Positions 1 through 10,285 of a stretch of 10,285 nucleotides of DNA are shown in pieces. Every line of letters starts with the position of its first letter. The first letter of the stretch is position 1. The stretch lies in the IMG/VR virus record IMGVR_UViG_2531839374_000022; one strand, written 5' to 3'. Made by a program: the position numbers and the translations under genes. Below the pieces are notes generated by a model, which saw only the letters and a program-made list of their open reading frames with translations, ran no database searches and was not told the origin of the DNA. Source of the DNA: a virus. Its lineage: Duplodnaviria; Heunggongvirae; Uroviricota; Caudoviricetes.

Positions 1-2433
1 TTACTCCGTCTGCTCAATAATCTGCTGGTGCTCTTTGTTCCCCGTGCCGAACTCACGCAACCACGCATTGTAGCTGTGCTGTATCGCATCACGGCACGTT
101 TGATCATCCCAGCCAGTAACCACGCCACCCAGCAGTAAAGCAGCCTCCAGAATGGCGAACCTTGCCCCTACACGGTGAACCTGTTCCCCATAGTCGGCAG
201 GAATAAGACTGCGCCAGCGGGCTTCACAGTCACGAACGGTATCAATGGCCTGCTGCTGGTGGCCTGCAAGCCATCTGATCCACTCCCGCCCGGCAGCGCC
301 GTGATTGCTCTGCCACGCGGATTTTAATGCGTCTGCATGGTCTTTCCCTGTCTGGTGCTCATGAAAGCGCACCGCCTTACTTAACGGGATATTCAGCAGG
401 CGCACCAGTTGCCCCGCTTTTGTCTTGCGTCCTGCGGTGGCAATGAACGTTTCTAAATCCATTTCCCCGGTGCTGATTGCCACGGTACGCCAGCGTTTTA
501 GATCCCGATTTCCGCCTTCTTTCGCGCCCTGCAATTTCCCTACGCCGTTAAACAGGGCATAGGCAGACTGAGAAACGCTTATCGGGTCTGCGCCCTGTCC
601 GACTTCATCCAGCGGCATCAGTCCGTCATTGTGGGCGGCGGCCTCGTTTATCAGCCCCAGCGCCGTCCCGTACCACGTCAGGCGCAAGGCATCAGGGTTC
701 CCGTATAGACTGCTAGCCACGTTCTGCGTGGTTGTTTTCCCGGCGCTCGATTGCTCATAAAAATGAATCCCGAATCCGTCACGCTCTGCCACCCCGATTA
801 ATGGCGCTGCCAGTGCTGCGGCAATGCCTGTCATCATCGCGTAGTTGCCGTATGCCAGCCGCGCGACACTGTTGCGCCAGCTTTCCGGCGTTCCTGCTAC
901 GGTATACCCGGCAGCGGCTGAACTGCGCCCGCTGAACAAAACAGGCCGCTCAGGTGTGCCGATGATTTCCCCGTCCGGCATGATGTATGCCCCGCACTGC
1001 CAGCCTGTAGCATGAGCAACGCGCCACAATTCACGCGAGCCGCTCCGCTGTAGCCAGTCGGCAAGGATCGCCCGTAAACTGCTTTTGGTCGTGACGTTAA
1101 CCCCACCAGCTTTCAGGGTGCGCCAGCCTTCACGCTCGCCAATATCAGCCAGCGGGATAGCCGCTGTTGTCGGTATGCCTGCACCGAATGCCAGCCATGA
1201 GATAATAAGATACTGATCTTTGTCGTCGCGTCCCGTGCCGATAACCTCCAACGGGGAACATAACCAGCTTTCAGCGTTGACGATCTCCCCGCTTTCCTTG
1301 TCCACCTTCGGCGTTACCCAGAAAACGCCATCTTTGCGGCTCTCAATGTGGGGTTTTAGTGGATCTTTCTCTGGATGGTCAGTTTTACCGCCCTCAATGG
1401 CTTGCAATCGCGGTTTCACGGCTTCCCCTTGAATCTGGTACATCGAATCGTTAAACGCAGCCGTAGCGACTTCCAGCCCGTTTTGCTGGCGGTAGTCGTC
1501 CCAGTCGGCTTTGTAGTCTGTCGGCGGCAGCGCCACCCAGCCAGCCACGGATAAGGCGGCTTTCTCTGCGGCATCTTTGCCCGTGTTCGCCTGGTCGTCC
1601 TGCTGGTGGTCGTTATCTGCGGCAATGATAATCTGCGTGGCTGGATATATCCGGCGCATCACTTCGGCAACGGGTAGCAGGTTGCCCGCGTCAATTGCTG
1701 CCACTGCCAGCGCGTCCGGGCGCATCAGGTGAACTGAAAGGGCCGTCGCCAGCCCCTCGGCAATTAAAACGCTCTGCGGCGATTCTGGCGCGTTTACGGC
1801 GTGATATGCCCCGCGCTTTGCTGAACCTGTCAGGAGTCGCTTCTCTCCCTGCGGTGTAATGGTTTGCGCTGCTGCCACTGCGCCGGATTCGTCCACCAGC
1901 TCCAGCAATAACGAACCATCCGGCATAACCGGATAGTTAAACCCGGTCAGCCCTTTTGATTGCAGGTAATCAGATTCGCCCTGTGTGGCACTCTGGCGCA
2001 TTCCGGCATACAGATGGGCAAACGTAGCCCTTCGCTGCTCTGCGTCCTCTGCTGCCTGTTTCTGGCGCTCCTGCTCACGCTGCTGGCGGTCAGCTTCCAG
2101 TTGCTCTCTTCTATGGCTCGCTGCCGCCGGGTCGGTTTGCGCTGCCCGGTAATCAATACCCAGCACGTCAGCGGCAAGCTGTGCCGCCTCCGTGGTGTCG
2201 CAGTTGTTTACCCGCTTGATTAAATCCAGCCCGTCACCAGCGCCACACTGGTTGCAGATAAAGCTACCGCGCCCGTTGTCGTCGAATCTGAAACGGTCTT
2301 TTCCACCACATGCAGGGCATGGAGAATGGCGGCGCGATGAATCAGGCACGTCGATAGACAATTCAGCCAGCACATAAGGCCAGCGCCCTGCTGCGGCGCT
2401 GGTCACTTCGCGGATAAGGTCGATATTACGCAT
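1..2433 (-). CDS. Bifunctional DNA primase/helicase, phage P4 alpha family (zinc-ribbon + TOPRIM + C-terminal P-loop NTPase)
   Basis: Track ORF 1..2466 (821 aa). N-terminal Cys motif CPACGGKDRFRFDD...FICNQCG (primase zinc ribbon), TOPRIM-like LIAEGLATALSV and IIIAADNDHQ, Walker-A-like SSAGKTTT in the C-terminal half. Likely true start is the ATG at 2433 (MRNIDLIREV...), which has an AGGAGG Shine-Dalgarno 7 nt upstream; the track start at 2466 is an in-frame upstream extension. Stop codon at 1-3. Confidence 0.88.
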   Translation of the reverse strand: MRNIDLIREVTSAAAGRWPYVLAELSIDVPDSSRRHSPCPACGGKDRFRFDDNGRGSFICNQCGAGDGLDLIKRVNNCDTTEAAQLAADVLGIDYRAAQTDPAAASHRREQLEADRQQREQERQKQAAEDAEQRRATFAHLYAGMRQSATQGESDYLQSKGLTGFNYPVMPDGSLLLELVDESGAVAAAQTITPQGEKRLLTGSAKRGAYHAVNAPESPQSVLIAEGLATALSVHLMRPDALAVAAIDAGNLLPVAEVMRRIYPATQIIIAADNDHQQDDQANTGKDAAEKAALSVAGWVALPPTDYKADWDDYRQQNGLEVATAAFNDSMYQIQGEAVKPRLQAIEGGKTDHPEKDPLKPHIESRKDGVFWVTPKVDKESGEIVNAESWLCSPLEVIGTGRDDKDQYLIISWLAFGAGIPTTAAIPLADIGEREGWRTLKAGGVNVTTKSSLRAILADWLQRSGSRELWRVAHATGWQCGAYIMPDGEIIGTPERPVLFSGRSSAAAGYTVAGTPESWRNSVARLAYGNYAMMTGIAAALAAPLIGVAERDGFGIHFYEQSSAGKTTTQNVASSLYGNPDALRLTWYGTALGLINEAAAHNDGLMPLDEVGQGADPISVSQSAYALFNGVGKLQGAKEGGNRDLKRWRTVAISTGEMDLETFIATAGRKTKAGQLVRLLNIPLSKAVRFHEHQTGKDHADALKSAWQSNHGAAGREWIRWLAGHQQQAIDTVRDCEARWRSLIPADYGEQVHRVGARFAILEAALLLGGVVTGWDDQTCRDAIQHSYNAWLREFGTGNKEHQQIIEQTE

Positions 2434-2767
2434 GGTTGCCTCCTGCCACGGTCGCGCCCATATCATTAATCATGCTTTGCCATATCTCGCGCCCGATGTC
2501 AGTCAATCCGTCCTTAGTGACGCAACGATCAAGAAGCTCGATCCCCACGATTTCCCACTGCGGGTAGCGCACTTTCATGGCTGCCAGTGCGTAGCTATCA
2601 ATCAGGCTGCGAACGCCTTTTACTCCATTGACGATTTCCACACGGACGGCGAGGCCGTCCGCATCAATCATGAAATAGTCCCCGCCGCTGGTGGAAGTAA
2701 TGTGGTTATACAGTGCCGCCGCATACTTATTCGCCAGCGCATTCAGTCGGAAATTTTTAGTAATCAT
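2426..2767 (-). CDS. Hypothetical protein (113 aa), last gene before the primase
   Basis: Track ORF; ATG at 2767 preceded by GAGGGG Shine-Dalgarno; stop lies 2 nt before the primase start at 2433. No motif recognised. Confidence 0.6.
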   Translation of the reverse strand: MITKNFRLNALANKYAAALYNHITSTSGGDYFMIDADGLAVRVEIVNGVKGVRSLIDSYALAAMKVRYPQWEIVGIELLDRCVTKDGLTDIGREIWQSMINDMGATVAGGNHA

Positions 2768-2775
2768 GTCGCCCC

Positions 2776-3378
2776 TCAGTGCGCCAGCGGCATTTCAGGC
2801 CAGCCGTTTTCATTCAGTTCAGCTATAAAGCTGTTGTGAAGTTCAGCAAGCGTTTCACGACCAAATGGAGTCAGTGCTCCTTGTTCCACATCCATCATGG
2901 CTCTGTAGAAAATGATGGCGCGTTCTGTGCCAGACTCGATGCCAAAACGTTCTATCATCGCGCCCTCAATGTTGTTTGCCATAGCGAGGCGCTCTGCTAC
3001 TGGATACAGCGGCATGGCGACGATGCCGTTGGAATAAACAGCCACTTCGGAAGGATTGCCAGTATCATCAATGATGCTGACAGTGCCGTTTTCCTCTCTC
3101 ATTTCCAGCATGAATACTGTTGCGATCAGCCAGCGCCACATAATCACGTGATGCTGTGATGTGTAATCGAAATATCCCTGGTTGCCGCCACTGGCAATAG
3201 CGAGATGTATAAACATGCCTTCATCTGGTTTATCGTCATAATCCCCGGCATCCAGACGATTTACGGCATCAATATATGAGACGGTCTCAACGCGTTCTGT
3301 CATGCCATCGTTGCTGCGGTACATGATGTTTACGCCGCCAGGCGTTGCTTCTGCATGGAACGTTAAGAAATTATTCAT
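2776..3378 (-). CDS. Hypothetical protein (about 200 aa)
   Basis: Track ORF 2776..3483; probable start is the internal ATG at 3378 (MNNFLTFHAEA...), which overlaps the stop of the upstream ORF by 8 nt (ATGAATAA) and has a GAGG Shine-Dalgarno. No motif recognised. Confidence 0.6.
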   Translation of the reverse strand: MNNFLTFHAEATPGGVNIMYRSNDGMTERVETVSYIDAVNRLDAGDYDDKPDEGMFIHLAIASGGNQGYFDYTSQHHVIMWRWLIATVFMLEMREENGTVSIIDDTGNPSEVAVYSNGIVAMPLYPVAERLAMANNIEGAMIERFGIESGTERAIIFYRAMMDVEQGALTPFGRETLAELHNSFIAELNENGWPEMPLAH

Positions 3379-3592
3379 GTTTCGCCTCGCCTGAATGATT
3401 CTGTAACTCATATTTGCCCAACAATTCGTCAGCTTCCTGAATAGCTTCTGGTACGCCATTGAGCAGTGACATAACCGCGCCAATCATTAACTTGTCTCTG
3501 TTGCTGGGGCTGGCCCCTTCAAGCCAGAACCCTAAAACAGTCTGAACCTGTTCGATGCGACATTGCGCTTCAATGAGCTGGATGTTGGTCAT
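3371..3592 (-). CDS. Hypothetical small protein (73 aa)
   Basis: Track ORF; ATG at 3592 with GGAGAG Shine-Dalgarno; ATGA start/stop overlap with the upstream ORF (stop at 3589). Confidence 0.55.
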   Translation of the reverse strand: MTNIQLIEAQCRIEQVQTVLGFWLEGASPSNRDKLMIGAVMSLLNGVPEAIQEADELLGKYELQNHSGEAKHE

Positions 3593-3852
3593 TTCGCACT
3601 CTCCACATCGATTAAACTGATATCTATCAGGGAGGTAACTTTTTGTAGCCAGCTATTGATTACTGTCGCCTGTTCCCCTCCCACCGAGGGAACAATCTCA
3701 TTCATCACATGAACCAGACCTGTGCGCGCTCTGGTAAGCCGTTCAGTCGCGCAATCTGCGGGAGTGAATGTGTCTGGATATGGCTCTTCGCGCCCCAGCA
3801 ATGATTCAATTTCCAGCTCACACGGATGACGATAAATTAAGTTGATATTCAT
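3589..3852 (-). CDS. Hypothetical small protein (87 aa)
   Basis: Track ORF; ATG at 3852 with GGGGGTG Shine-Dalgarno; ATGA overlap with the upstream ORF (stop at 3849). Confidence 0.55.
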   Translation of the reverse strand: MNINLIYRHPCELEIESLLGREEPYPDTFTPADCATERLTRARTGLVHVMNEIVPSVGGEQATVINSWLQKVTSLIDISLIDVESAK

Positions 3853-4043
3853 TTTTCACCCCCAAGAATTACCAGCTCTGCACGGGCATCGTTAACCAAA
3901 GATGAGCACGCTTTAATCGCATCCACGACATCAGCAGCGTCCATTTCTTCAGCCGAAAGACTGACAGCAACCAGGACAGCCGCTGTTTGCTCGATTAATT
4001 GAAGTGCGGACGTAAGGCGAGGGGTATTAATTGAGTTATTCAT
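3849..4043 (-). CDS. Hypothetical small protein (about 64 aa)
   Basis: Track ORF 3849..4100 begins with GTG; the internal ATG at 4043 (MNNSINTPRL...) overlaps the upstream stop by 8 nt and has a G-rich Shine-Dalgarno, so 4043 is the preferred start. Confidence 0.5.
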   Translation of the reverse strand: MNNSINTPRLTSALQLIEQTAAVLVAVSLSAEEMDAADVVDAIKACSSLVNDARAELVILGGEK

Positions 4044-4254
4044 TGGTTGCCCCCCGTTTTCCTGACATTTCGCCACCTTCCAGCAGGAAATGAACGTCAC
4101 GAACGGCGAGATCCAATATCGCGAGTAACGCCTTCAGTTTTTCGTCTCGTGAGGGAGAGTTGCTCACCAGAATGTCATTAATCACTTCTGTCAGTGTGAT
4201 GATCTGGCTTGTGCGTTCGAGGGGATCCATATGCACATCGTAGGTTTTAATCAT
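4036..4254 (-). CDS. Hypothetical small protein (72 aa)
   Basis: Track ORF 4036..4344; preferred start is the ATG at 4254 (MIKTYDVHMDPLE...) with a GGAGGTG Shine-Dalgarno; it overlaps the stop of the upstream ORF (ATGATTAA). Confidence 0.55.
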   Translation of the reverse strand: MIKTYDVHMDPLERTSQIITLTEVINDILVSNSPSRDEKLKALLAILDLAVRDVHFLLEGGEMSGKRGATNE

Positions 4255-4441
4255 GTGCCACCTCCATGCGGATACGACCAGCAAAAAAGCAGACGTGATC
4301 GCGCACCAGAGAACGGCGAGCATCGCGTTCAGACTCGGCAGCAATATGATGAATTTTGGCGGTAATTGTCGGGCAATCGCGGCGAACTGCGGCGATAATC
4401 CAGATAAATTGCGGTTTTTGGGTAGGGGTAGTAGCCAGCAT
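4247..4441 (-). CDS. Small protein (64 aa), first gene after the structured leader; possibly Icd-like (host cell division inhibitor family of P1/P4-like elements)
   Basis: C-terminal 64 codons of track ORF 4247..5002. ATG at 4441 has a strong AAGGAGG Shine-Dalgarno 7 nt upstream. Sequence MLATTPTQKPQFIWIIAAVRR...FFAGRIRMEVAHD. The Icd-like assignment rests on position directly after a C4/CI-like leader and a remembered resemblance; it is not verified. Confidence 0.5.
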   Translation of the reverse strand: MLATTPTQKPQFIWIIAAVRRDCPTITAKIHHIAAESERDARRSLVRDHVCFFAGRIRMEVAHD

Positions 4442-4444
4442 AGC

Positions 4445-4710
4445 GGCAGCCTCCTTTGTGTTTAAGGAGTCACCGCCTGAGTTTCCACGCTCTGAAATGG
4501 CGGTGACGTTAGCAGGGGTGGAAATACCGGACACAAAGGAAACCGGCCTACGCGAACGTAGCCCCACTAACGCCACCATTGATACAGTACGGACTAGGCC
4601 GCTGATTTGATGTGCGTAGTGATCGGACACAAAAAAAGACGCTTTCGGCGTCTGTGTCGCCCTGAGTGTGTTCGGGTTTCCACGCCCGGTTGCTGATTTT
4701 GCAGCAACGC
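4445..4710 (-). ncRNA. Candidate structured leader / antisense-RNA immunity region (P4 CI / P1 C4-like): hairpins, direct repeats and a terminator
   Basis: On the minus strand: hairpin GTTGCTG-CAAAAT-CAGCAAC (plus 4689-4708); direct repeat GCGTGGAAAC at plus 4676-4685 and 4481-4490; a complementary TTTCCAC at plus 4518-4524; direct repeat TTTGTGTCCG at plus 4624-4633 and 4528-4537; UUCG-loop hairpin at plus 4548-4561; 9-bp stem GTCACCGCC/GGCGGTGAC (plus 4469-4477 and 4499-4507) enclosing one repeat copy, immediately upstream of the Shine-Dalgarno at 4449-4454. The family assignment is inference. Confidence 0.35.
4631..4653 (-). terminator. Rho-independent terminator (minus strand)
   Basis: Minus strand reads AGACGC-CGAAA-GCGUCU followed by UUUUUUU; 6-bp GC-rich stem at plus 4637-4642 / 4648-4653, then a run of seven T on the minus strand (plus 4631-4637, the last shared with the stem). 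Confidence 0.55.
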
Positions 4711-4940
4711 TTGGACTATAACAGCTTTTCTCTGCTAGGTGGTCATACCAGATAAAACCGTAACCCTTTAAGAGTTTTTCCTGTGCACGGCTCACCATCT
4801 TTTTGTTGAGGGTAAGCGCCTCGCGTACTGGTAACGGAACTCCGGGCGCTGCGGTATCAATATCAGGTTTTATAAGGTTGTAAGGGTTAACATTTGTTAA
4901 CAGGCCAGCCAGATTAAAGGCTTCTTTCTGGGCGGCAGGT

Positions 4941-5123
4941 TCATTCAGTATCACGGCGCACCTCCACGAACTCATTAACGAATCTCTCCAAAGGCTGAAC
5001 ACATGGCGACTGATAGCCCTCGCGGTAAAAGGTCACTCGGTTATGCTCGACGCGCTCAACGGTCACTACAGCCCCGTGCGAATCCTTGTAACGGCTTCCC
5101 GGCATCGGATTGTGGTTACGCAT
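4941..5123 (-). CDS. Hypothetical small protein (60 aa)
   Basis: Track ORF; ATG preceded by GGAGGT Shine-Dalgarno; start overlaps the stop of the antirepressor-like gene by 8 nt (translational coupling). Confidence 0.5.
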   Translation of the reverse strand: MRNHNPMPGSRYKDSHGAVVTVERVEHNRVTFYREGYQSPCVQPLERFVNEFVEVRRDTE

Positions 5124-5925
5124 GGTTTACCTCCAGACGTTTAGCGAGCCAGCGTTGCGACAGGCGGGTGAGTTCTCCTTTGCGCTGCTCATATTCCATG
5201 CCCATATCAATTAACGTGATATTGGTGCTTTCGAGATAGGCGAGGTGTTCAAGCTGTGCTGCGTTCATGCTGTCCCGTGGTTCGCCAGTAATGCCATTTG
5301 CCTGCGCCCACTGCTTCGCCGTCATGCCACCCAGCACGATACGGGCGATCATGTTGCTCTCGTTGCTGTAGTGGCGCTGCTGCGTCGTTTTGCCCATCTC
5401 GGCACGGGCCATATTCAGCGCATCGCACATTGGCTTAAAGTTGTTTGCGGCACTGAGACGGGCTTTTAGCTGGCGACGATAGCGGGCGGCGATTTCAGGC
5501 ACGCTACGCTGTAATTCTTCCTCGCACTGGATGAAATAACGGCGGATAGCGCGGCCCTGCTCGTTGCGTTCAACCATTGCCACTTCTTTAGCCATATCCA
5601 GCGATAGCAGGTAATCATGCTCTATTTGCTGGCGAGTTTTTGCGCTCGCCCGTTTTGGCGTGCTCAAATTTTCAACACGGATAAAATCGGTTCCGGCAAT
5701 AAAACCGTACTGGTCAATTCGGCCTTTAATCCAGTTAGTAAAGTCGCGGCCCACCCCCAGCGCTTTATGCAACGCCTTAGCGCTCACAATATTGGCTTCA
5801 CGCCCGCCAATGCGTCCGGCAATAACGGGAACAATAGCGGCAAAGTCGTTGCCGTTAATTACTCCCGTGTTAACGTTGGGTTGCGGGGCGGCCCCCGAAC
5901 TGAATCGGCTTTTTTCGATAGTCAT
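5116..5925 (-). CDS. Phage antirepressor-like protein (AntA/AntB N-terminal motif plus KilAC-like region)
   Basis: Track ORF 5116..5985 begins with TTG; preferred start is the ATG at 5925 (MTIEKSRF...) with a GGAG Shine-Dalgarno. Motifs SAKALHKALGVGRDFTNWIKGRIDQYGFIAGTDFI (AntA-type) and LSLDMAKEVAMVERNEQGRAIRRYFIQCEEEL (typical of phage antirepressors). Confidence 0.72.
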   Translation of the reverse strand: MTIEKSRFSSGAAPQPNVNTGVINGNDFAAIVPVIAGRIGGREANIVSAKALHKALGVGRDFTNWIKGRIDQYGFIAGTDFIRVENLSTPKRASAKTRQQIEHDYLLSLDMAKEVAMVERNEQGRAIRRYFIQCEEELQRSVPEIAARYRRQLKARLSAANNFKPMCDALNMARAEMGKTTQQRHYSNESNMIARIVLGGMTAKQWAQANGITGEPRDSMNAAQLEHLAYLESTNITLIDMGMEYEQRKGELTRLSQRWLAKRLEVNHA

Positions 5926-6617: not shown

Positions 6618-6628
6618 TGGATTTGCCC

Positions 6629-7534
6629 CTATATTTCCAGACATCTGTTATCACTTAACCCATTACAAGCCCGCTGCCGCAGATATTCCCGTGGCGAGCG
6701 ATAACCCAGCGCACTATGCGGATGCCATTCGTTATAATGTTCGAACGCCTCTGCAAGGTTCTTTGCTGCCGTTAACCCGTCTGGTTTGGGCATGATACTG
6801 ATGTAGTCACGCTTTATCGTTTTCACGAAGCTCTCTGCTATTCCGTTACTCTCCGGACTCCGCACCGCCGTGTTCTTCGGTTCAAGTCCCAACATCCGGG
6901 CGAACTGGCGTGTTTCATTAGCCCGGTAGCATGAACCATTATCCGTCAGCCACTCCACTGGAGACGACGGAAGATCGTTGCCGAAGCGGCGTTCCACCGC
7001 TCCCAGCATGACGTCCTGTACTGTTTCACTGTTGAAGCCGCCGGTAGTCACCGCCCAGTGCAGTGCCTCACGATCACAGCAGTCCAGCGCGAACGTGACA
7101 CGCAGTCTCTCTCCGTTATCACAGCAGAACTCGAACCCGTCAGAGCACCATCGCTGATTGCTTTCTTTCACGGCCACTCTGCCTGTATGTGCCCGTTTCG
7201 ATGGCGGTACAGCAGGTTTTCGCTCAAGCAACAGCGCATTCTGGCGCATGATCCGGTAAACACGTTTGGCATTGATCGCAGGCATACCATCAAGTTCTGC
7301 CTGTCTGCGAAGCAGCGCCCATACCCGACGATAACCATACGTGGGCAGCTCTCCGATAACATGGTGTATACGGAGAAGCACATCCGTATCATCAGTGTGA
7401 CGACTGCGGCGGCCATCCATCCAGTCATCGGTTCGTCTGAGAATGACGTGCAACTGCGCACGCGACACCCGGAGACAACGGCTGACTAAGCTTACTCCCC
7501 ATCCCCGGGCAATAAGGGCGCGTGCGCTATCCAC
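6629..7534 (-). CDS. insD: IS2 transposase OrfB (InsD), 301 aa
   Basis: Track ORF; protein [34 protein letters not shown]... matches IS2 InsD as remembered; GTG start; expressed as the OrfAB fusion by -1 frameshifting. Confidence 0.95.
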
Positions 7535-7857
7535 TTTTTTGCCCGTCCATATTCAACGGCTTCTTTGAGGAGTTCATTTTCCATCGTTTTCTTGCCGAGC
7601 AGGCGCTGGAGTTCTTTAATCTGCTTCATGGCGGCAGCAAGTTCAGAGGCAGGAACAACCTGTTCTCCGGCGGCCACAGCAGTAAGACTTCCTTCCTGGT
7701 ATTGCTTACGCCAGAGAAATAACTGGCTGGCTGCTACACCATGTTGCCGGGCAACGAGGGAGACCGTCATCCCCGGTTCAAAGCTCTGCTGAACAATTGC
7801 GATCTTTTCCTGTGTGGTACGCCGTCTGCGTTTCTCCGGCCCTAAGACATCAATCAT
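7492..7857 (-). CDS. insC: IS2 transposase OrfA (InsC)
   Basis: Track ORF 7492..7902 has an upstream GTG extension; the canonical InsC start [26 protein letters not shown]... is the ATG at 7857. Confidence 0.95.
7534..7541 (-). other. Probable IS2 -1 programmed ribosomal frameshift site (A6G slippery run) in the insC/insD overlap
   Basis: Minus strand reads GGGCAAAAAAGTGG in the InsC/InsD overlap (plus ccactttttt gcccg at about 7531-7545). Frameshifting at an A6G motif is established for IS2/IS3-family elements; the exact position here is by eye. Confidence 0.5.
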
Positions 7858-7948
7858 CTGTACTCCAATGACTAGTCTAAAAACTAGTATTAAGACTATC
7901 ACTTATTTAAGTGATACTGGTTGTCTGGAGATTCAGGGGGCCAGTCTA

Positions 7949-7962: not shown

Positions 7963-8025
7963 CGTGCACGCTCAAAAAGGAATGATCGTATTTTTTACTA
8001 TCGTGATAGTAAAATTTACTATCAC
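7963..8025. promoter_or_regulatory. Operator-like palindrome cluster between the orphan gene and IS2/alpA
   Basis: Perfect 10-bp palindrome GCGTGCACGC (7963-7972); inverted repeat TACTATC-gt-GATAGTA (7996-8011) with a third half-site TACTATCAC (8017-8025). On the plus strand GTGATAGTAAA / TTTACTATCAC can pair and is followed by CTTTTTTT (8026-8033), so the same sequence could act as a plus-strand terminator. Confidence 0.35.
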
Positions 8026-8870
8026 CTTTTTTTCCCTGCCGTGGTGCGTTCTTCCGGTGTTCTGTCTGTGTCGGCTATGAGTTTCTTCAGGTAATCTATG
8101 GATGGCTCATCATAGCCGCCCCCCAAAAGCGCCCAGTGGTTTATTGTGGCGTTCGCCCATGCTTCGTTGGTTTCCTTCCCGTTCTTCCCTTTACACTCTT
8201 CTGGGTAGTGCCGCTTCACATAAATCAACGCCAAGAGGCAAATTTCGCGCTTTTGCCTGTGGCGCTCTCTGTTTCCGTGCTCAACGTTTTTAACATCCTC
8301 ATAAAGAGCTTGTAAGTTTATGCGAGTTTCGGGGCTGTATATGGGCTGGTTTTTGTCCATGCATTCGCCGATATATTCAACCCACGGCCTTGTTATGTAC
8401 AAATCCTCTACGGATATTTCGTGGAAGGCATGTTTTGTATAATCGAGAAAAAAATAATAATTCGCACTTACGTCTAGTTCTCTTTTTCTGTGTGCGGGGC
8501 TGAATATGCGTGCGGGAGTGTCAATAGAATCAAGCCCTGCGATGTCGAGTATATAGGAGGCGTTAACATGCCATAGCCCAAGCACATGGCAATCTATATG
8601 ATTTACAACGCCTGCCTTAAAGCTTTTTTCGTCCTCTACTTCAGTGATTATGTCGGCAAGTAATAAGCAGTCTTCTTTGACGTCTGGGAATAAAGAGCAA
8701 TTGCGGTAAAGACTCGCGATGCTATGTAATGTGCCGTCGTAGCCGCAAAGGTACGCGCTCAAATATATAGATTCTGCCGCCGCCATAATCAAAAGATCAT
8801 CAATATCTATTTCTAATAATTCGGCTGCTCTGTTAAGCCTGAAAAAAGGGGCGGGTGGTAATTTTTTCAT
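8022..8870 (-). CDS. Hypothetical protein (282 aa), AT-rich orphan cargo gene between the integrase and alpA
   Basis: Track ORF; ATG at 8870 preceded by AGGTGA Shine-Dalgarno. The DNA is visibly more AT-rich than the rest of the window (long A/T runs; exact GC not computed). N-terminus FFRLNRAAELLEIDIDDLL is weakly helix-turn-helix-like; no catalytic motif recognised. Confidence 0.65.
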   Translation of the reverse strand: MKKLPPAPFFRLNRAAELLEIDIDDLLIMAAAESIYLSAYLCGYDGTLHSIASLYRNCSLFPDVKEDCLLLADIITEVEDEKSFKAGVVNHIDCHVLGLWHVNASYILDIAGLDSIDTPARIFSPAHRKRELDVSANYYFFLDYTKHAFHEISVEDLYITRPWVEYIGECMDKNQPIYSPETRINLQALYEDVKNVEHGNRERHRQKREICLLALIYVKRHYPEECKGKNGKETNEAWANATINHWALLGGGYDEPSIDYLKKLIADTDRTPEERTTAGKKR

Positions 8871-8965
8871 TGCGTCACCTTTTACGCTGCGCCTTATTTT
8901 GTGATTGAGCCAGGCGGTAAGGCTTCCCGCTTTTCGCCCCGTCGAGCTAGGCTCAATCTATTCAG

Positions 8966-10285
8966 TTAGTTCGCCCTTCTGAGAGGCGTTACGTTGTAGT
9001 CTTTTCCGCTTTCCAGTGCCACCAGCAGATCAGCCCACTGTGCCAGTGCTGCTTTACGCTCATCAAAATACTGATGGCGGTTATAAATCCCCTCTACGCC
9101 CTTAATGCGATGATTGAGGCATCGTTCCGCCACAACAGGATCAACACCCAACGCTGCTAAATGAGTACGTGCGGTGCGTCGAAAGTCGTGAATCGTGAAA
9201 TTAGGCACATCCGGCATTTCGGCGCGAACCTTAGCCAGTGCTACGGGTAAAGTGCTTTCCTGAATATGTGGGATCATTCTGTTTTGCATCTTCCTGGCCG
9301 GAAGCACCCATGCGCTATTACATGAAAAGGTGTGTAGCTCTCTCAACCATTCAACGGCTGGGGAAGGTAGAGGTATATCAATAGGGTCTCCGTTTTTGCT
9401 GCGTTCTTCCGGCAAATGCCATACCGCACCATCTAAATCAAACTCTTCCCATCGTGCGGCGCATAATTCCATTTTGCGGACGCATAACGCTAACAGTAAT
9501 TTGAACGTGATTTCGTTCTGGCGACTGAATCCCTTAGCCGTGCGCATGGCTTTGAATAGCTGGATTAACTCATCGCGGGTTAACCAGCGGTCACGGGCAG
9601 CTTCTTTCCCTCCGGCGTCTGCCACCTCAAAGGCTGAACAGGGGTTAATCTCTAGCGCGTGCCGTTTGATTCCGTAGTCGAATATGCGGCGCGTCCATCT
9701 CAGCACGTCCGTTGCTATGGTCGGCGCTCCACGGTCAACAATACCTTTCAGCATGTCATCGATATGGCGCGGTTTCACGTCCTCTACCTTCATGCTGCCA
9801 ATGCAGGGGTTTATATCTTTGTCGATACGGCGGCGGAGTATATCGGGGTGCTTCCAGCGCGGGAGGATCTGACGCTCAAAGTATTCAGCGGCAAGCTCTG
9901 AAACGCGCATAGCGTTCTTCTCTGCTTCCATCTTCGCCAGTGCTTCGGTTTTGCGCTTCTGCTTCTCTCCTGCAACGTCATAGCCCAGCGCAACGCGAGC
10001 CGATAGCTCTTTGGCTGTCTCTCTGGCCTTTGATAGTGATAGCTCGCTATACGAACCAATTAGCATGGCGCGGGACTTCCCTGCGAGTTTATAGCGGAAT
10101 CTCCATGTGGGGGTTTTGTCGGCTTCACGGTAACGTAGGTATAAACCGTTACCGTCTGCCCGCCCCTCGAATCGCTCTCCGCTCTTAATCCATGCGCGGA
10201 TCTGCATGTCTGTTAGTTTTGGCATTTTGCGAATATCCAAACTTTGAATAGGGGGTGTACCCAAAGCAATGTACCCAAACCTCAT
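8966..10285 (-). CDS. int: Tyrosine-type site-specific integrase, P4-like family (N-terminal arm-binding domain + catalytic domain)
   Basis: Track ORF of 439 aa reaching the window edge. N-terminal GNGLYLRYREADKTPTWRFRYKLAGKSRAMLIGSY matches the P4-type arm-binding (DUF4102-like) pattern; C-terminal HDFRRTARTHLAALG...NHRIKGVEGIYNRHQY carries the R/H-x-x-R/Y catalytic signature. A more typical start is the internal ATG at 10225 (MPKLTDMQIRAWIK...). Confidence 0.9.
   Translation of the reverse strand: MRFGYIALGTPPIQSLDIRKMPKLTDMQIRAWIKSGERFEGRADGNGLYLRYREADKTPTWRFRYKLAGKSRAMLIGSYSELSLSKARETAKELSARVALGYDVAGEKQKRKTEALAKMEAEKNAMRVSELAAEYFERQILPRWKHPDILRRRIDKDINPCIGSMKVEDVKPRHIDDMLKGIVDRGAPTIATDVLRWTRRIFDYGIKRHALEINPCSAFEVADAGGKEAARDRWLTRDELIQLFKAMRTAKGFSRQNEITFKLLLALCVRKMELCAARWEEFDLDGAVWHLPEERSKNGDPIDIPLPSPAVEWLRELHTFSCNSAWVLPARKMQNRMIPHIQESTLPVALAKVRAEMPDVPNFTIHDFRRTARTHLAALGVDPVVAERCLNHRIKGVEGIYNRHQYFDERKAALAQWADLLVALESGKDYNVTPLRRAN

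Follow-up and report, generated by a model that had tools for sequence, protein, structure and literature searches.

Seven small open reading frames (ORFs), here called O1 to O7, run head to tail on the minus strand of IMG/VR virus record IMGVR_UViG_2531839374_000022 (10,285 nucleotides, the window of this report) and lead into a gene for a P4 alpha-type primase. The element that carries them is an integrated phage satellite of the Gram-negative phage-inducible chromosomal island (PICI) type, not P4 proper, and the window holds its early, replication-side operon. We think it likely that control of this satellite early operon follows that of the P4 left operon and of P1 immI, with translational coupling relaying a decision taken at O1 to the primase; masking of the O1 ribosome-binding site by a C4-type antisense RNA is most likely the reason for the tight coupling.

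Coupled genes and RNA elements of the block

An earlier reading of the letters of the window (the first-pass annotation) described seven small coupled ORFs between positions 2426 and 4441, with good Shine-Dalgarno sequences at nearly every start. A frame-by-frame scan recovered all seven (Table 1), with overlaps of the ATGA or ATGNNTAA type at six of the seven junctions, O7/primase included, and a Shine-Dalgarno sequence was found 6-10 nucleotides (nt) upstream of every start from O1 through O7 to the primase (AAGGAGG, GGAGG, GGGGGG, GGGGGTGA, GGAGAG, GAGG, GAGGGG and AGGAGG). O1-O7 together occupy 99.6% of 2426-4441; coverage in 2000 mononucleotide shuffles averaged 12% and reached 56% at most. 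A consensus scan of the coding strand within the block detected neither promoter-like nor terminator-like sites. The coupled chain starts at alpA (6573), not at O1, and comprises 13 cistrons: alpA, a 143-aa ORF, Ant, DUF4222, Eta/Kil, O2-O7 and the primase, the upstream junctions measuring -1, +13, -8 and -14.

Conservation across related elements, on which the first-pass annotation had made its reading depend, was observed: the ORFs are conserved as proteins at the equivalent position in other genera. Among 76 loci from other Enterobacterales, fetched with the primase as query, tblastn matches numbered 33 for O1, 38 for O6, 25 for O7, 21 for O5, 18 for O4, 5 for O2 and 3 for O3. The ratio of nonsynonymous to synonymous substitution rates (dN/dS) was recomputed within families, the closest relatives having yielded too few substitutions; medians of 0.13-0.34 across O3-O7, and a polymorphism ratio (pN/pS) of 0.24 from the single usable pair for O2, point to purifying selection. 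Antisense ORFs on the plus strand (e.g. 2432-2839 and 2779-3159) were treated as shadows, because the homology and selection signals all lie in minus-strand frames.

The junctions themselves recur. In 49 non-redundant related operons, the stretches from kil to the primase contain 256 junctions, of which 212 are overlaps (117 of 4 nt, 71 of 8 nt, 10 of 1 nt), and 97% of the downstream starts have a Shine-Dalgarno sequence of at least 4 nt, figures that are upper estimates, since the gene caller favours coupled starts. Over 49 unrelated gene pairs the junction is stereotyped, with GGAGG at -12 to -8, a C before the ATG and NN-TAA after it. The resulting consensus, GGAGG-N7-ATG-NN-TAA, spans about 20 nt, and unrelated upstream proteins therefore end in E-V-x-H-[A/D/V], while many downstream proteins begin with M-R-N. 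This common junction could be a recombination linker for the swapping of cassettes.

The first-pass annotation had placed the block immediately downstream of an RNA leader. RNA genes are indeed present there, but not in an untranslated leader: both an isrK-like element and a C4/CI-type antisense RNA lie within a long open frame, Eta-like or 'Ash family' (235-251 aa, depending on the start), which is in phase with O1 and whose start overlaps the DUF4222 stop. Residues 79-182 of this frame (nt 4720-4409) match Pfam PF10554 (Phage_ASH), and the frame groups with P4 eta in a BLAST family. It is carried by 50 of the 76 loci, and in all 50 its start is coupled to the preceding gene and no stop interrupts it over the 372-1164 nt before kil, against one stop per 54 nt in the other two frames of this region. 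The Phage_ASH alignment coincides with the isrK-like and C4 genes and the start of O1, as it likewise does in P4 eta, and the conservation of this 'protein family' may be owed largely to constraints on the RNAs. In L001, the closest complete Escherichia coli relative (96% identity across the operon), the NCBI annotation pipeline PGAP labels the Eta-like region an incomplete 'ash family protein' pseudogene.

On the coding strand, the Rfam matches of the first RNA element span 4708-4632 for isrK and 4721-4669 for the c4-a1b1 target motif, and an intrinsic terminator hairpin with a T-run (4653-4637) stands at the end of the isrK match. Some 7 nt ahead of the isrK 5' end lies TGTTATAGT, the putative extended -10 of a constitutive, immunity-sensitive promoter analogous to P4 PLE; a GTTATAG-like element precedes the isrK hairpin in most of the related leaders. 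The second RNA, C4, carries an apical loop, UUUCCUUUGUGU, complementary over 10 nt to the site b2 at the O1 Shine-Dalgarno sequence, and a 3' tail, UUUCCAC, complementary to GTGGAAA both at 4488-4482 (a2) and at 4681-4675.

In order to follow this pairing across relatives, a covariance model was built from eight homologues; it detected C4 in 31 loci, compared with 8 for a single-sequence nhmmer search. Across the 31 loci, 99.7% of cells in the conserved three-helix structure of C4 are paired and 16 of the 27 pairs show compensatory changes. Every one of the 31 has a perfect complement of its own loop, 8-10 nt long, 34-39 nt past the C4 3' end and ending in the kil Shine-Dalgarno sequence. Eighteen different loops occur among them, and complementary runs average 9.1 nt for cognate pairs versus 3.9 nt for non-cognate ones. 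These comparisons offer strong comparative evidence that the C4 RNA masks the O1 ribosome-binding site, and the at least 18 naturally matched pairs of RNA loop and target could serve as orthogonal immunity specificities.

With the same covariance model, C4 was not detected in 21 loci that have the Eta-like frame (L012, L015, L019, L021, L025, L027, L036, L037, L039-L042, L045-L047, L052, L058-L060, L067 and L073), and six of these, rechecked at Rfam gathering thresholds, had neither C4 nor isrK. An Icd-like C-terminus is present in 8 of the 21; the nested kil start appears to go with the C4 RNA, because the internal ATG and its Shine-Dalgarno sequence are missing in 5 of these 8. The C4-less relatives may use a different, undescribed control, or none.

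O1 is the nested 3' part of the Eta-like frame, its ATG lying 55 nt past the C4 3' end. The first-pass annotation had proposed searching the block for Icd-like, Ash-like and P4 epsilon families. The first two were found, the Ash-like match falling on the frame that carries the RNAs and the Icd-like one on O1, of which residues 12-59 match NCBIfam NF033153 (phage_ICD_like; 71.7 bits against a cutoff of 25, E 3.7e-20). Epsilon was not: BLAST, Pfam and profile comparison revealed no relative of epsilon (PF25738) or orf151 among O1-O7, and hhalign probabilities against epsilon did not exceed 0.8%. O1 is basic (isoelectric point, pI, 9.5) and shares 44% identity with the 65-aa P4 Kil (E 4e-11). Judged by its sequence, it is Kil/Icd-like, the first cistron of an immunity-controlled transcript, and its product would be a toxic cell-division inhibitor. 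At the start of O1 (4440-4361; 28 C, 14 G) the operon mRNA has its most C-rich, G-poor stretch of 80 nt.

These features can be arranged into a switch. In the quiescent state, by analogy with P4 and P1, a weak constitutive promoter within the Eta-like frame would produce a short leader, from which the isrK-like and C4 RNAs would be made. The C4 loop and 3' tail would pair with a2/b2 and hide the O1 Shine-Dalgarno sequence; with O1 untranslated, its C-rich start would be left bare, and transcription would end, probably by Rho, ahead of O2-O7 and the primase. Upon induction, a helper phage would trigger AlpA and transcripts would presumably begin upstream of alpA. Ribosomes would then cross alpA, the 143-aa ORF, Ant, DUF4222, the Eta-like frame and the RNA genes, run in phase into Kil, and be handed over at each ATGA or ATGNNTAA junction with a Shine-Dalgarno sequence at a fixed distance, so that the mRNA would be covered as far as the primase and be insensitive to C4 RNA. 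Coupling would serve as the wire that carries one decision at O1 over 2 kb. Among the products, O6 and perhaps O7 would be Cnr-like partners that tune the primase/initiator, and O2-O5 accessory proteins of an exchangeable cassette. The promoters, the Rho dependence, the activation by AlpA and all protein functions in this scheme are those that we infer.

That coupling would propagate the O1 decision is reasoned from the precedents of P4, P1 and Gifsy-1. Expression of ant in P1 depends on translation of icd, and in the P1-like phage D6 icd overlaps ant. The interplay of translation, Rho and CI in P4 was reportedly described by Forti et al. in 1999. Ribosomes translating the P4 kil region keep Rho from terminating transcription; CI RNA shuts this translation off when the transcript comes from the internal constitutive promoter, and transcripts from the upstream late promoter, which are translated through eta, escape CI (PMC10111431). 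E. coli PICIs are induced by AlpA, which activates its own expression (PMC6092414), and experiments on Gifsy-1 have demonstrated coupling at an AUGA overlap that is controlled by isrK (PMC4825925). The C-rich start of O1, TGTTATAGT ahead of isrK and the absence of internal signals all fit a relay of this kind.

A killer gene behind an RNA switch could also be put to another use. In an abortive-infection or programmed-cell-death module, a phage protein would disturb the RNA/AlpA control and the cell would be arrested or killed by the Icd/Kil-like protein, made either by itself or as the C-terminal end of Eta, the linked small genes and the primase being needed for the full effect. In a prophage-like locus of ECOR61, expression of the phage accessory gene orf24 causes cell death, which is abolished by removal of the Icd-like gene, and P4 has been suggested to kill via kil upon expression of Abc1 (Silas et al., bioRxiv 10.1101/2023.04.06.535777). 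The architecture of the window matches that of the ECOR61 locus exactly as described, a likeness drawn by description only. However, the element is complete as a satellite (int, alpA and primase), no ORF of the block matches a defence family (with PADLOC, none for O2-O7), and EcCIMP1-like elements are mobilised by helpers (PMC11773190), such that killing may be a side effect of induction. We therefore hold a primarily defensive role to be unlikely, and retain the relay from O1 to the primase as the working interpretation.

Small proteins between O1 and the primase

O2-O5 are acidic proteins (pI 4.2-5.0), none of which matches any family of known function. Homologues of O2 were found by tblastn at 38-48% identity in L014, L033 and L049 and at 96% in L001 and L011, without any family match; O3 has homologues in L001, L011 and L012 (dN/dS 0.34) and only sub-threshold family matches. 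Both are rare members of a variable cassette. O4 belongs to a family of 22 members (dN/dS 0.21) with the motif R..RL.R.R.GL.H...P...W, and O4-like and F20-like proteins are neighbours in some loci and fused in three. The O5 family has 25 members, at times two per operon (dN/dS 0.13), with the motif C(R/Q)(I/V)EQAQ.VLS.WLE...LL.GVPEA; O5 corresponds to phrog_20558 (E 2.9e-9), a family of unknown function. Motifs and lengths of the O4 and O5 families are kept across genera at 20-53% identity. The notion that O2-O5 form a paralogous hairpin family found no support (pairwise BLAST E of at least 0.08). The number of ORFs between kil and the Cnr-like gene varies from 1 to 7 across the 49 operons, and together these ORFs represent more than 20 unrelated families of 55-100 aa; Pfam searches with ten of the other cassette families returned ORF6N only, together with one sub-threshold domain of unknown function (DUF), and profile links within the cassette are weak (O5-family with F21, 79%; F17 with F9, 53%; O3 with O5, 21%).

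Such turnover invites the view, close to that of the first-pass annotation, that O2-O5, possibly all six downstream ORFs, are helper-manipulating or counter-defence proteins analogous to epsilon, and that coupling serves only their co-expression. Besides the high variability of the interval, with its more than 20 families, this view is favoured by the mosaic content across E. coli genomes, by purifying selection on the ORFs, by the position of epsilon at the equivalent place in P4, and by the small size and acidity of the proteins, traits shared by many phage inhibitor proteins. It is compatible with regulation by an RNA switch, and differs from the relay in what it takes to be the main purpose of the block. 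Yet no homology to epsilon or to characterised anti-defence or derepressor families was found, the two largest ORFs relate, O7 only possibly, to the replication regulator Cnr, and variability by itself is no proof of a role in conflict. On balance we consider this view possible, if improbable as the main purpose of the block. As for the suggestion that the small ORFs might serve host takeover, O1, a putative killer or division inhibitor, would fit such a role; O6 points instead to the control of replication.

In a more particular version, kil and the Cnr-like gene would enclose a cassette dedicated to small acidic effectors (counter-defence, helper-specific or triggers of cell death) that turn over fast, are swapped via the junction of about 20 nt and are wired to the RNA switch. 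We put this forward as a speculation that is rather improbable; if it were true, O2-O5 would represent novel families of inhibitors, produced only once the satellite has been triggered.

At the other extreme, O2-O5 could be relay ORFs, in which translation alone counts, holding ribosomes on the mRNA and keeping Rho away, and the products have no function. Rapid change in the families present and in the number of ORFs would agree with this, as would the junction sequences, which are the most conserved feature over unrelated gene pairs, and orf45 of the Gifsy-1 isrK system, which is conserved in nucleotides and not in amino acids (PMC4825925). Functionless products are, however, hard to reconcile with dN/dS of 0.13-0.34 for O3-O5, with motifs and lengths kept across genera despite the low identity given above, with the occurrence of O4-like and F20-like proteins both as neighbours and as fusions, and with the existence of a PHROG family for O5; we judge this account very improbable.

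The two ORFs nearest the primase are of a different kind. O6 is very acidic (net charge -19) and consists of an N-terminal domain without known function and a Cnr-like C-terminal domain. A profile of 52 diverse O6 members aligned with P4 Cnr/DUF5375 with an hhalign probability of 94.4% (E 9e-8; O6 78-195 with Cnr 6-102 of 107), and a bridging protein of 126 aa (P0369) weakly matches both the O6 and the Cnr profiles, scoring 16.6 bits against the PF17345 cutoff of 30. Searched directly against PF17345 (DUF5375), neither O6 nor O7 matched at E of 0.1 or below or reached the gathering score; relative to Cnr, O6 has the extra N-terminal domain and a beta-hairpin inserted in the C-terminal domain. 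Profile comparison indicates that the C-terminal domain of O6 is a remote Cnr homologue. Viral contigs of the P4 type, fetched to diversify Cnr, were all about 100% identical to P4 and of no use for this purpose.

The AlphaFold2 (AF2) model of O7 is confident (predicted local distance difference test, pLDDT, 92.5; predicted template modelling score, pTM, 0.85) and shows a helix/hairpin/helix arrangement, in which the order of secondary structure equals that of O6 74-191. The O7 and O6 profiles (hhalign, A6 versus A4) align with a probability of 56% (E 1e-4) and share the motif L(T/S)xxGRE, and O7 is possibly a paralogue of the O6 C-terminal domain. A direct profile comparison of O7 with Cnr gave 0.4%. 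Structural neighbours of O7 were found neither in BFVD (no match below E 0.4) nor in the Protein Data Bank (PDB), and the sequence profiles of O4, O5, O6 and O7 had no match in the PDB. O7 overlaps the start of the primase and O6 lies one gene further upstream; P4 cnr is located 14 nt upstream of alpha. Cnr controls the copy number of P4 (PMC8628076), and from this role and the position before alpha, O6 and O7 are best read as regulators associated with the primase. An O7-like gene is also present in L159 (phage phi467 record LN997803, locus 4892-5230), after a gene with an ORF6N domain and not before a primase, which shows that the O7 family moves between contexts.

Several points weigh against a relay from O1 to the primase. 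The upstream copy of the C4 target has a perfect a1, but its b1 is degenerate in the window, with a perfect match of 5 nt only. A good -35 is lacking at the candidate internal promoter, which a two-hexamer scan did not pick up; the Rho dependence is carried over from P4; overlapping genes are common anyway in compact mobile elements, and the junction counts are, as stated, upper estimates. The link of O7 to Cnr is transitive only, by way of its alignment with O6. In addition, a copy of IS2 lies 52 nt ahead of the alpA start codon, and of the upstream sequence that alpA shares with L001 only about 47 nt are left. The AlpA-dependent late promoter has probably been cut off by IS2 in the window copy, or replaced by IS2 read-through, and the 'on' route may be broken here.

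The surrounding element

The genes of the window stand in one orientation (int, alpA, Ant/Bro, DUF4222, Ash/Eta and primase; Table 1).

Table 1. Coordinates of the features of the window, beginning with the block and its RNA elements
Feature	Position	Strand	Details
O1	4441..4247	minus	64 aa, ATG start
O2	4254..4036	minus	72 aa, ATG start
O3	4043..3849	minus	64 aa, ATG start
O4	3852..3589	minus	87 aa, ATG start
O5	3592..3371	minus	73 aa, ATG start
O6	3378..2776	minus	200 aa, ATG start
O7	2767..2426	minus	113 aa, ATG start
O1/O2 junction			ATGATTAA, 8-nt overlap
O2/O3 junction			ATGAATAA, 8-nt overlap
O3/O4 junction			ATGA
O4/O5 junction			ATGA
O5/O6 junction			ATGAATAA
O6/O7 junction			8-nt gap
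O7/primase junction			ATGCGTAA, 8-nt overlap
Eta-like ('Ash family') open frame	4247..4954	minus	235 aa from GTG 4954; alternative starts ATG 4975, GTG 5002
C4/CI-type antisense RNA	4496..4583	minus	Rfam RF01695, 80.3 bits vs gathering score 45
isrK-like / c4-a1b1 (seqA-like) element	4632..4721	minus	Rfam RF01394, 72.1 bits; RF03163, 55.1 bits
Candidate extended -10, TGTTATAGT	4715..4723	minus	about 7 nt upstream of isrK 5' end
C4 target site a2, GTGGAAA	4488-4482	minus	
C4 target site b2, ACACAAAGGA	4461-4452	minus	overlaps O1 Shine-Dalgarno AAGGAGG 4456-4450
Primase/helicase	1..2433 (stop codon 1-3)	minus	810 aa; zinc ribbon, Toprim, DUF927; P4 alpha type
DUF4222 gene	5123-4941	minus	Pfam
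Ant/Bro-type (AntA/B-type) protein	5925-5116	minus	
143-aa ORF	6370-5939	minus	
alpA	6573-6370	minus	
IS2 copy	6626-7939		insC/insD-type genes on minus strand; imperfect 33-nt terminal inverted repeats
ORF of 282 aa	8022-8870	minus	between integrase and IS2
Integrase	8966-10285		

The primase matches Pfam PF08273, PF13362 and PF06048 as well as phrog_1139, and is 35% identical to P4 alpha; the comparison with P4 made in the first-pass annotation is apt in that a coupled operon feeds a primase of the P4 type. The L001 island, some 14 kb long, sits between yicC and dinD and carries genes for SSB and PerC beyond the primase. As in other Gram-negative PICIs, int, alpA and pri-rep are co-oriented, the size is in the range of about 10-15 kb, and phage structural or lysis genes are absent; the gene set matches the descriptions of EcCIMP1 (PMC11773190) and EcCICFT073 (PMC6092414). 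Classification as a P4-like satellite in the sense of SatelliteFinder (int, alpA, epsilon, alpha, sid, delta, psu) was rejected, int, alpA and the alpha-type primase being the only members found; epsilon is absent, and neither the window nor the whole L001 island has sid, delta or psu. No complete E. coli genome in the collection covers at least 80% of the window, and of the 644 E. coli genomes that match part of the query just 19 cover at least 80% of it, in keeping with mosaic content.

The order alpA, 143-aa ORF, Ant and DUF4222 was found again in more than 40 loci. In its C-terminal part, the Ant/Bro-type protein has a match to PDC-S22, a candidate defence family of PADLOC (E 1.6e-11). Directly downstream of the integrase gene, at 8891-8957 on the minus strand, lies an int-alpA RNA motif (Rfam RF02996, 60.6 bits), which occupies the equivalent position in six related loci. 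The integrase-side slot of P4-like satellites and PICIs often holds cargo or defence genes. Here it contains the 282-aa ORF, which has no Pfam match and a negligible PADLOC match, and homologues in only 2 of the 76 related loci. The interval between this ORF and IS2 (7974-8033) contains an imperfect palindrome of 29 nt and two direct repeats of 20 nt each (TGATCGTATTTTTTACTATC / TGATAGTAAAATTTACTATC), which could be an operator-like or binding site.

Comparison with known systems

The layout and the control logic of the operon are already known from the P4 left operon and from P1 immI. In P4 the left operon reads vis(orf88)-eta/kil-epsilon-orf151-cnr-alpha and is under the immunity of the CI RNA (seqA/seqB/seqC). 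The window resembles it in an AlpA/Vis-type first gene; in a long Eta frame (Phage_ASH) with the CI/C4 RNA inside and Kil nested at its 3' end; in an antisense RNA complementary to the kil ribosome-binding site, for which P4 was part of the same comparison; in overlaps of 4 or 8 nt, which in P4 occur among vis, eta, epsilon and orf151; and in a Cnr-type protein followed by an alpha-type primase as the final gene. It differs in having four to five unrelated small acidic ORFs in place of epsilon and orf151; a Cnr homologue with an extra N-terminal domain and an inserted hairpin, which stays below the Pfam DUF5375 threshold; the extra gene O7 between this homologue and the primase; and the 143-aa ORF, Ant/Bro and DUF4222 between alpA and eta. 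Moreover, sid, delta and psu are lacking in the window and in L001, and the primase is only 35% identical to alpha.

With P1/P7 immI (c4 RNA, icd, ant) the window has in common a C4 RNA (RF01695) with a1/b1 upstream and a2/b2 downstream, the latter hiding the ribosome-binding site of icd, an Icd-like first cistron, and, as proposed here, a payload that depends on icd translation through an overlapping stop and start. In P1 this payload is the antirepressor Ant, whereas in the window the Ant-like gene lies upstream and the payload would be six small proteins and the primase; in addition, the RNA genes of the window lie within a translated frame that would be fed from an upstream promoter. In isrK-orf45-anrP of Gifsy-1, too, an isrK-type RNA that has a terminator of its own precedes a small ORF, which is coupled to the downstream gene by an AUGA overlap (PMC4825925), but in that locus translation is activated in trans by the short RNA, an antirepressor forms the payload and a primase operon is lacking.

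The Gram-negative PICIs EcCICFT073 and EcCIMP1 share with the window int, alpA, an antirepressor, an 'Ash family protein' and the primase, along with SSB and PerC in L001, and have AlpA as their inducer (PMC6092414). C4 and isrK matches within the 'Bro zone' genes of Gram-negative PICIs are known, and it has been proposed that the eta/kil mechanism of P4 possibly applies to these islands (PMC10111431). In the 2018 PICI paper, only AlpA, Pri-Rep and Int were said to resemble P4 proteins (PMC6092414); the window differs in that Eta/Kil and the Cnr-like protein are also common to it and P4. The literature searched contained no individual description of the small ORFs between Ash/Icd and the primase, no link between O6 and Cnr, and no family-wide covariation of the C4 loop with the ribosome-binding site.

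The truly uncharacterised content is narrowed to four small conserved acidic proteins and the confidently folded O7 of 113 aa, which has no structural neighbour; the rest of the block is ordinary for an element of the PICI kind. Three parts, Eta/Kil, the CI-type RNA and the Cnr-like protein, are added to those that PICIs and P4 have in common. If the relay from O1 to the primase, which we favour, is correct, one well-studied logic, an antisense RNA on the first ribosome-binding site combined with translational coupling, would govern the replication operon of widespread enterobacterial satellites, as it does in P4.

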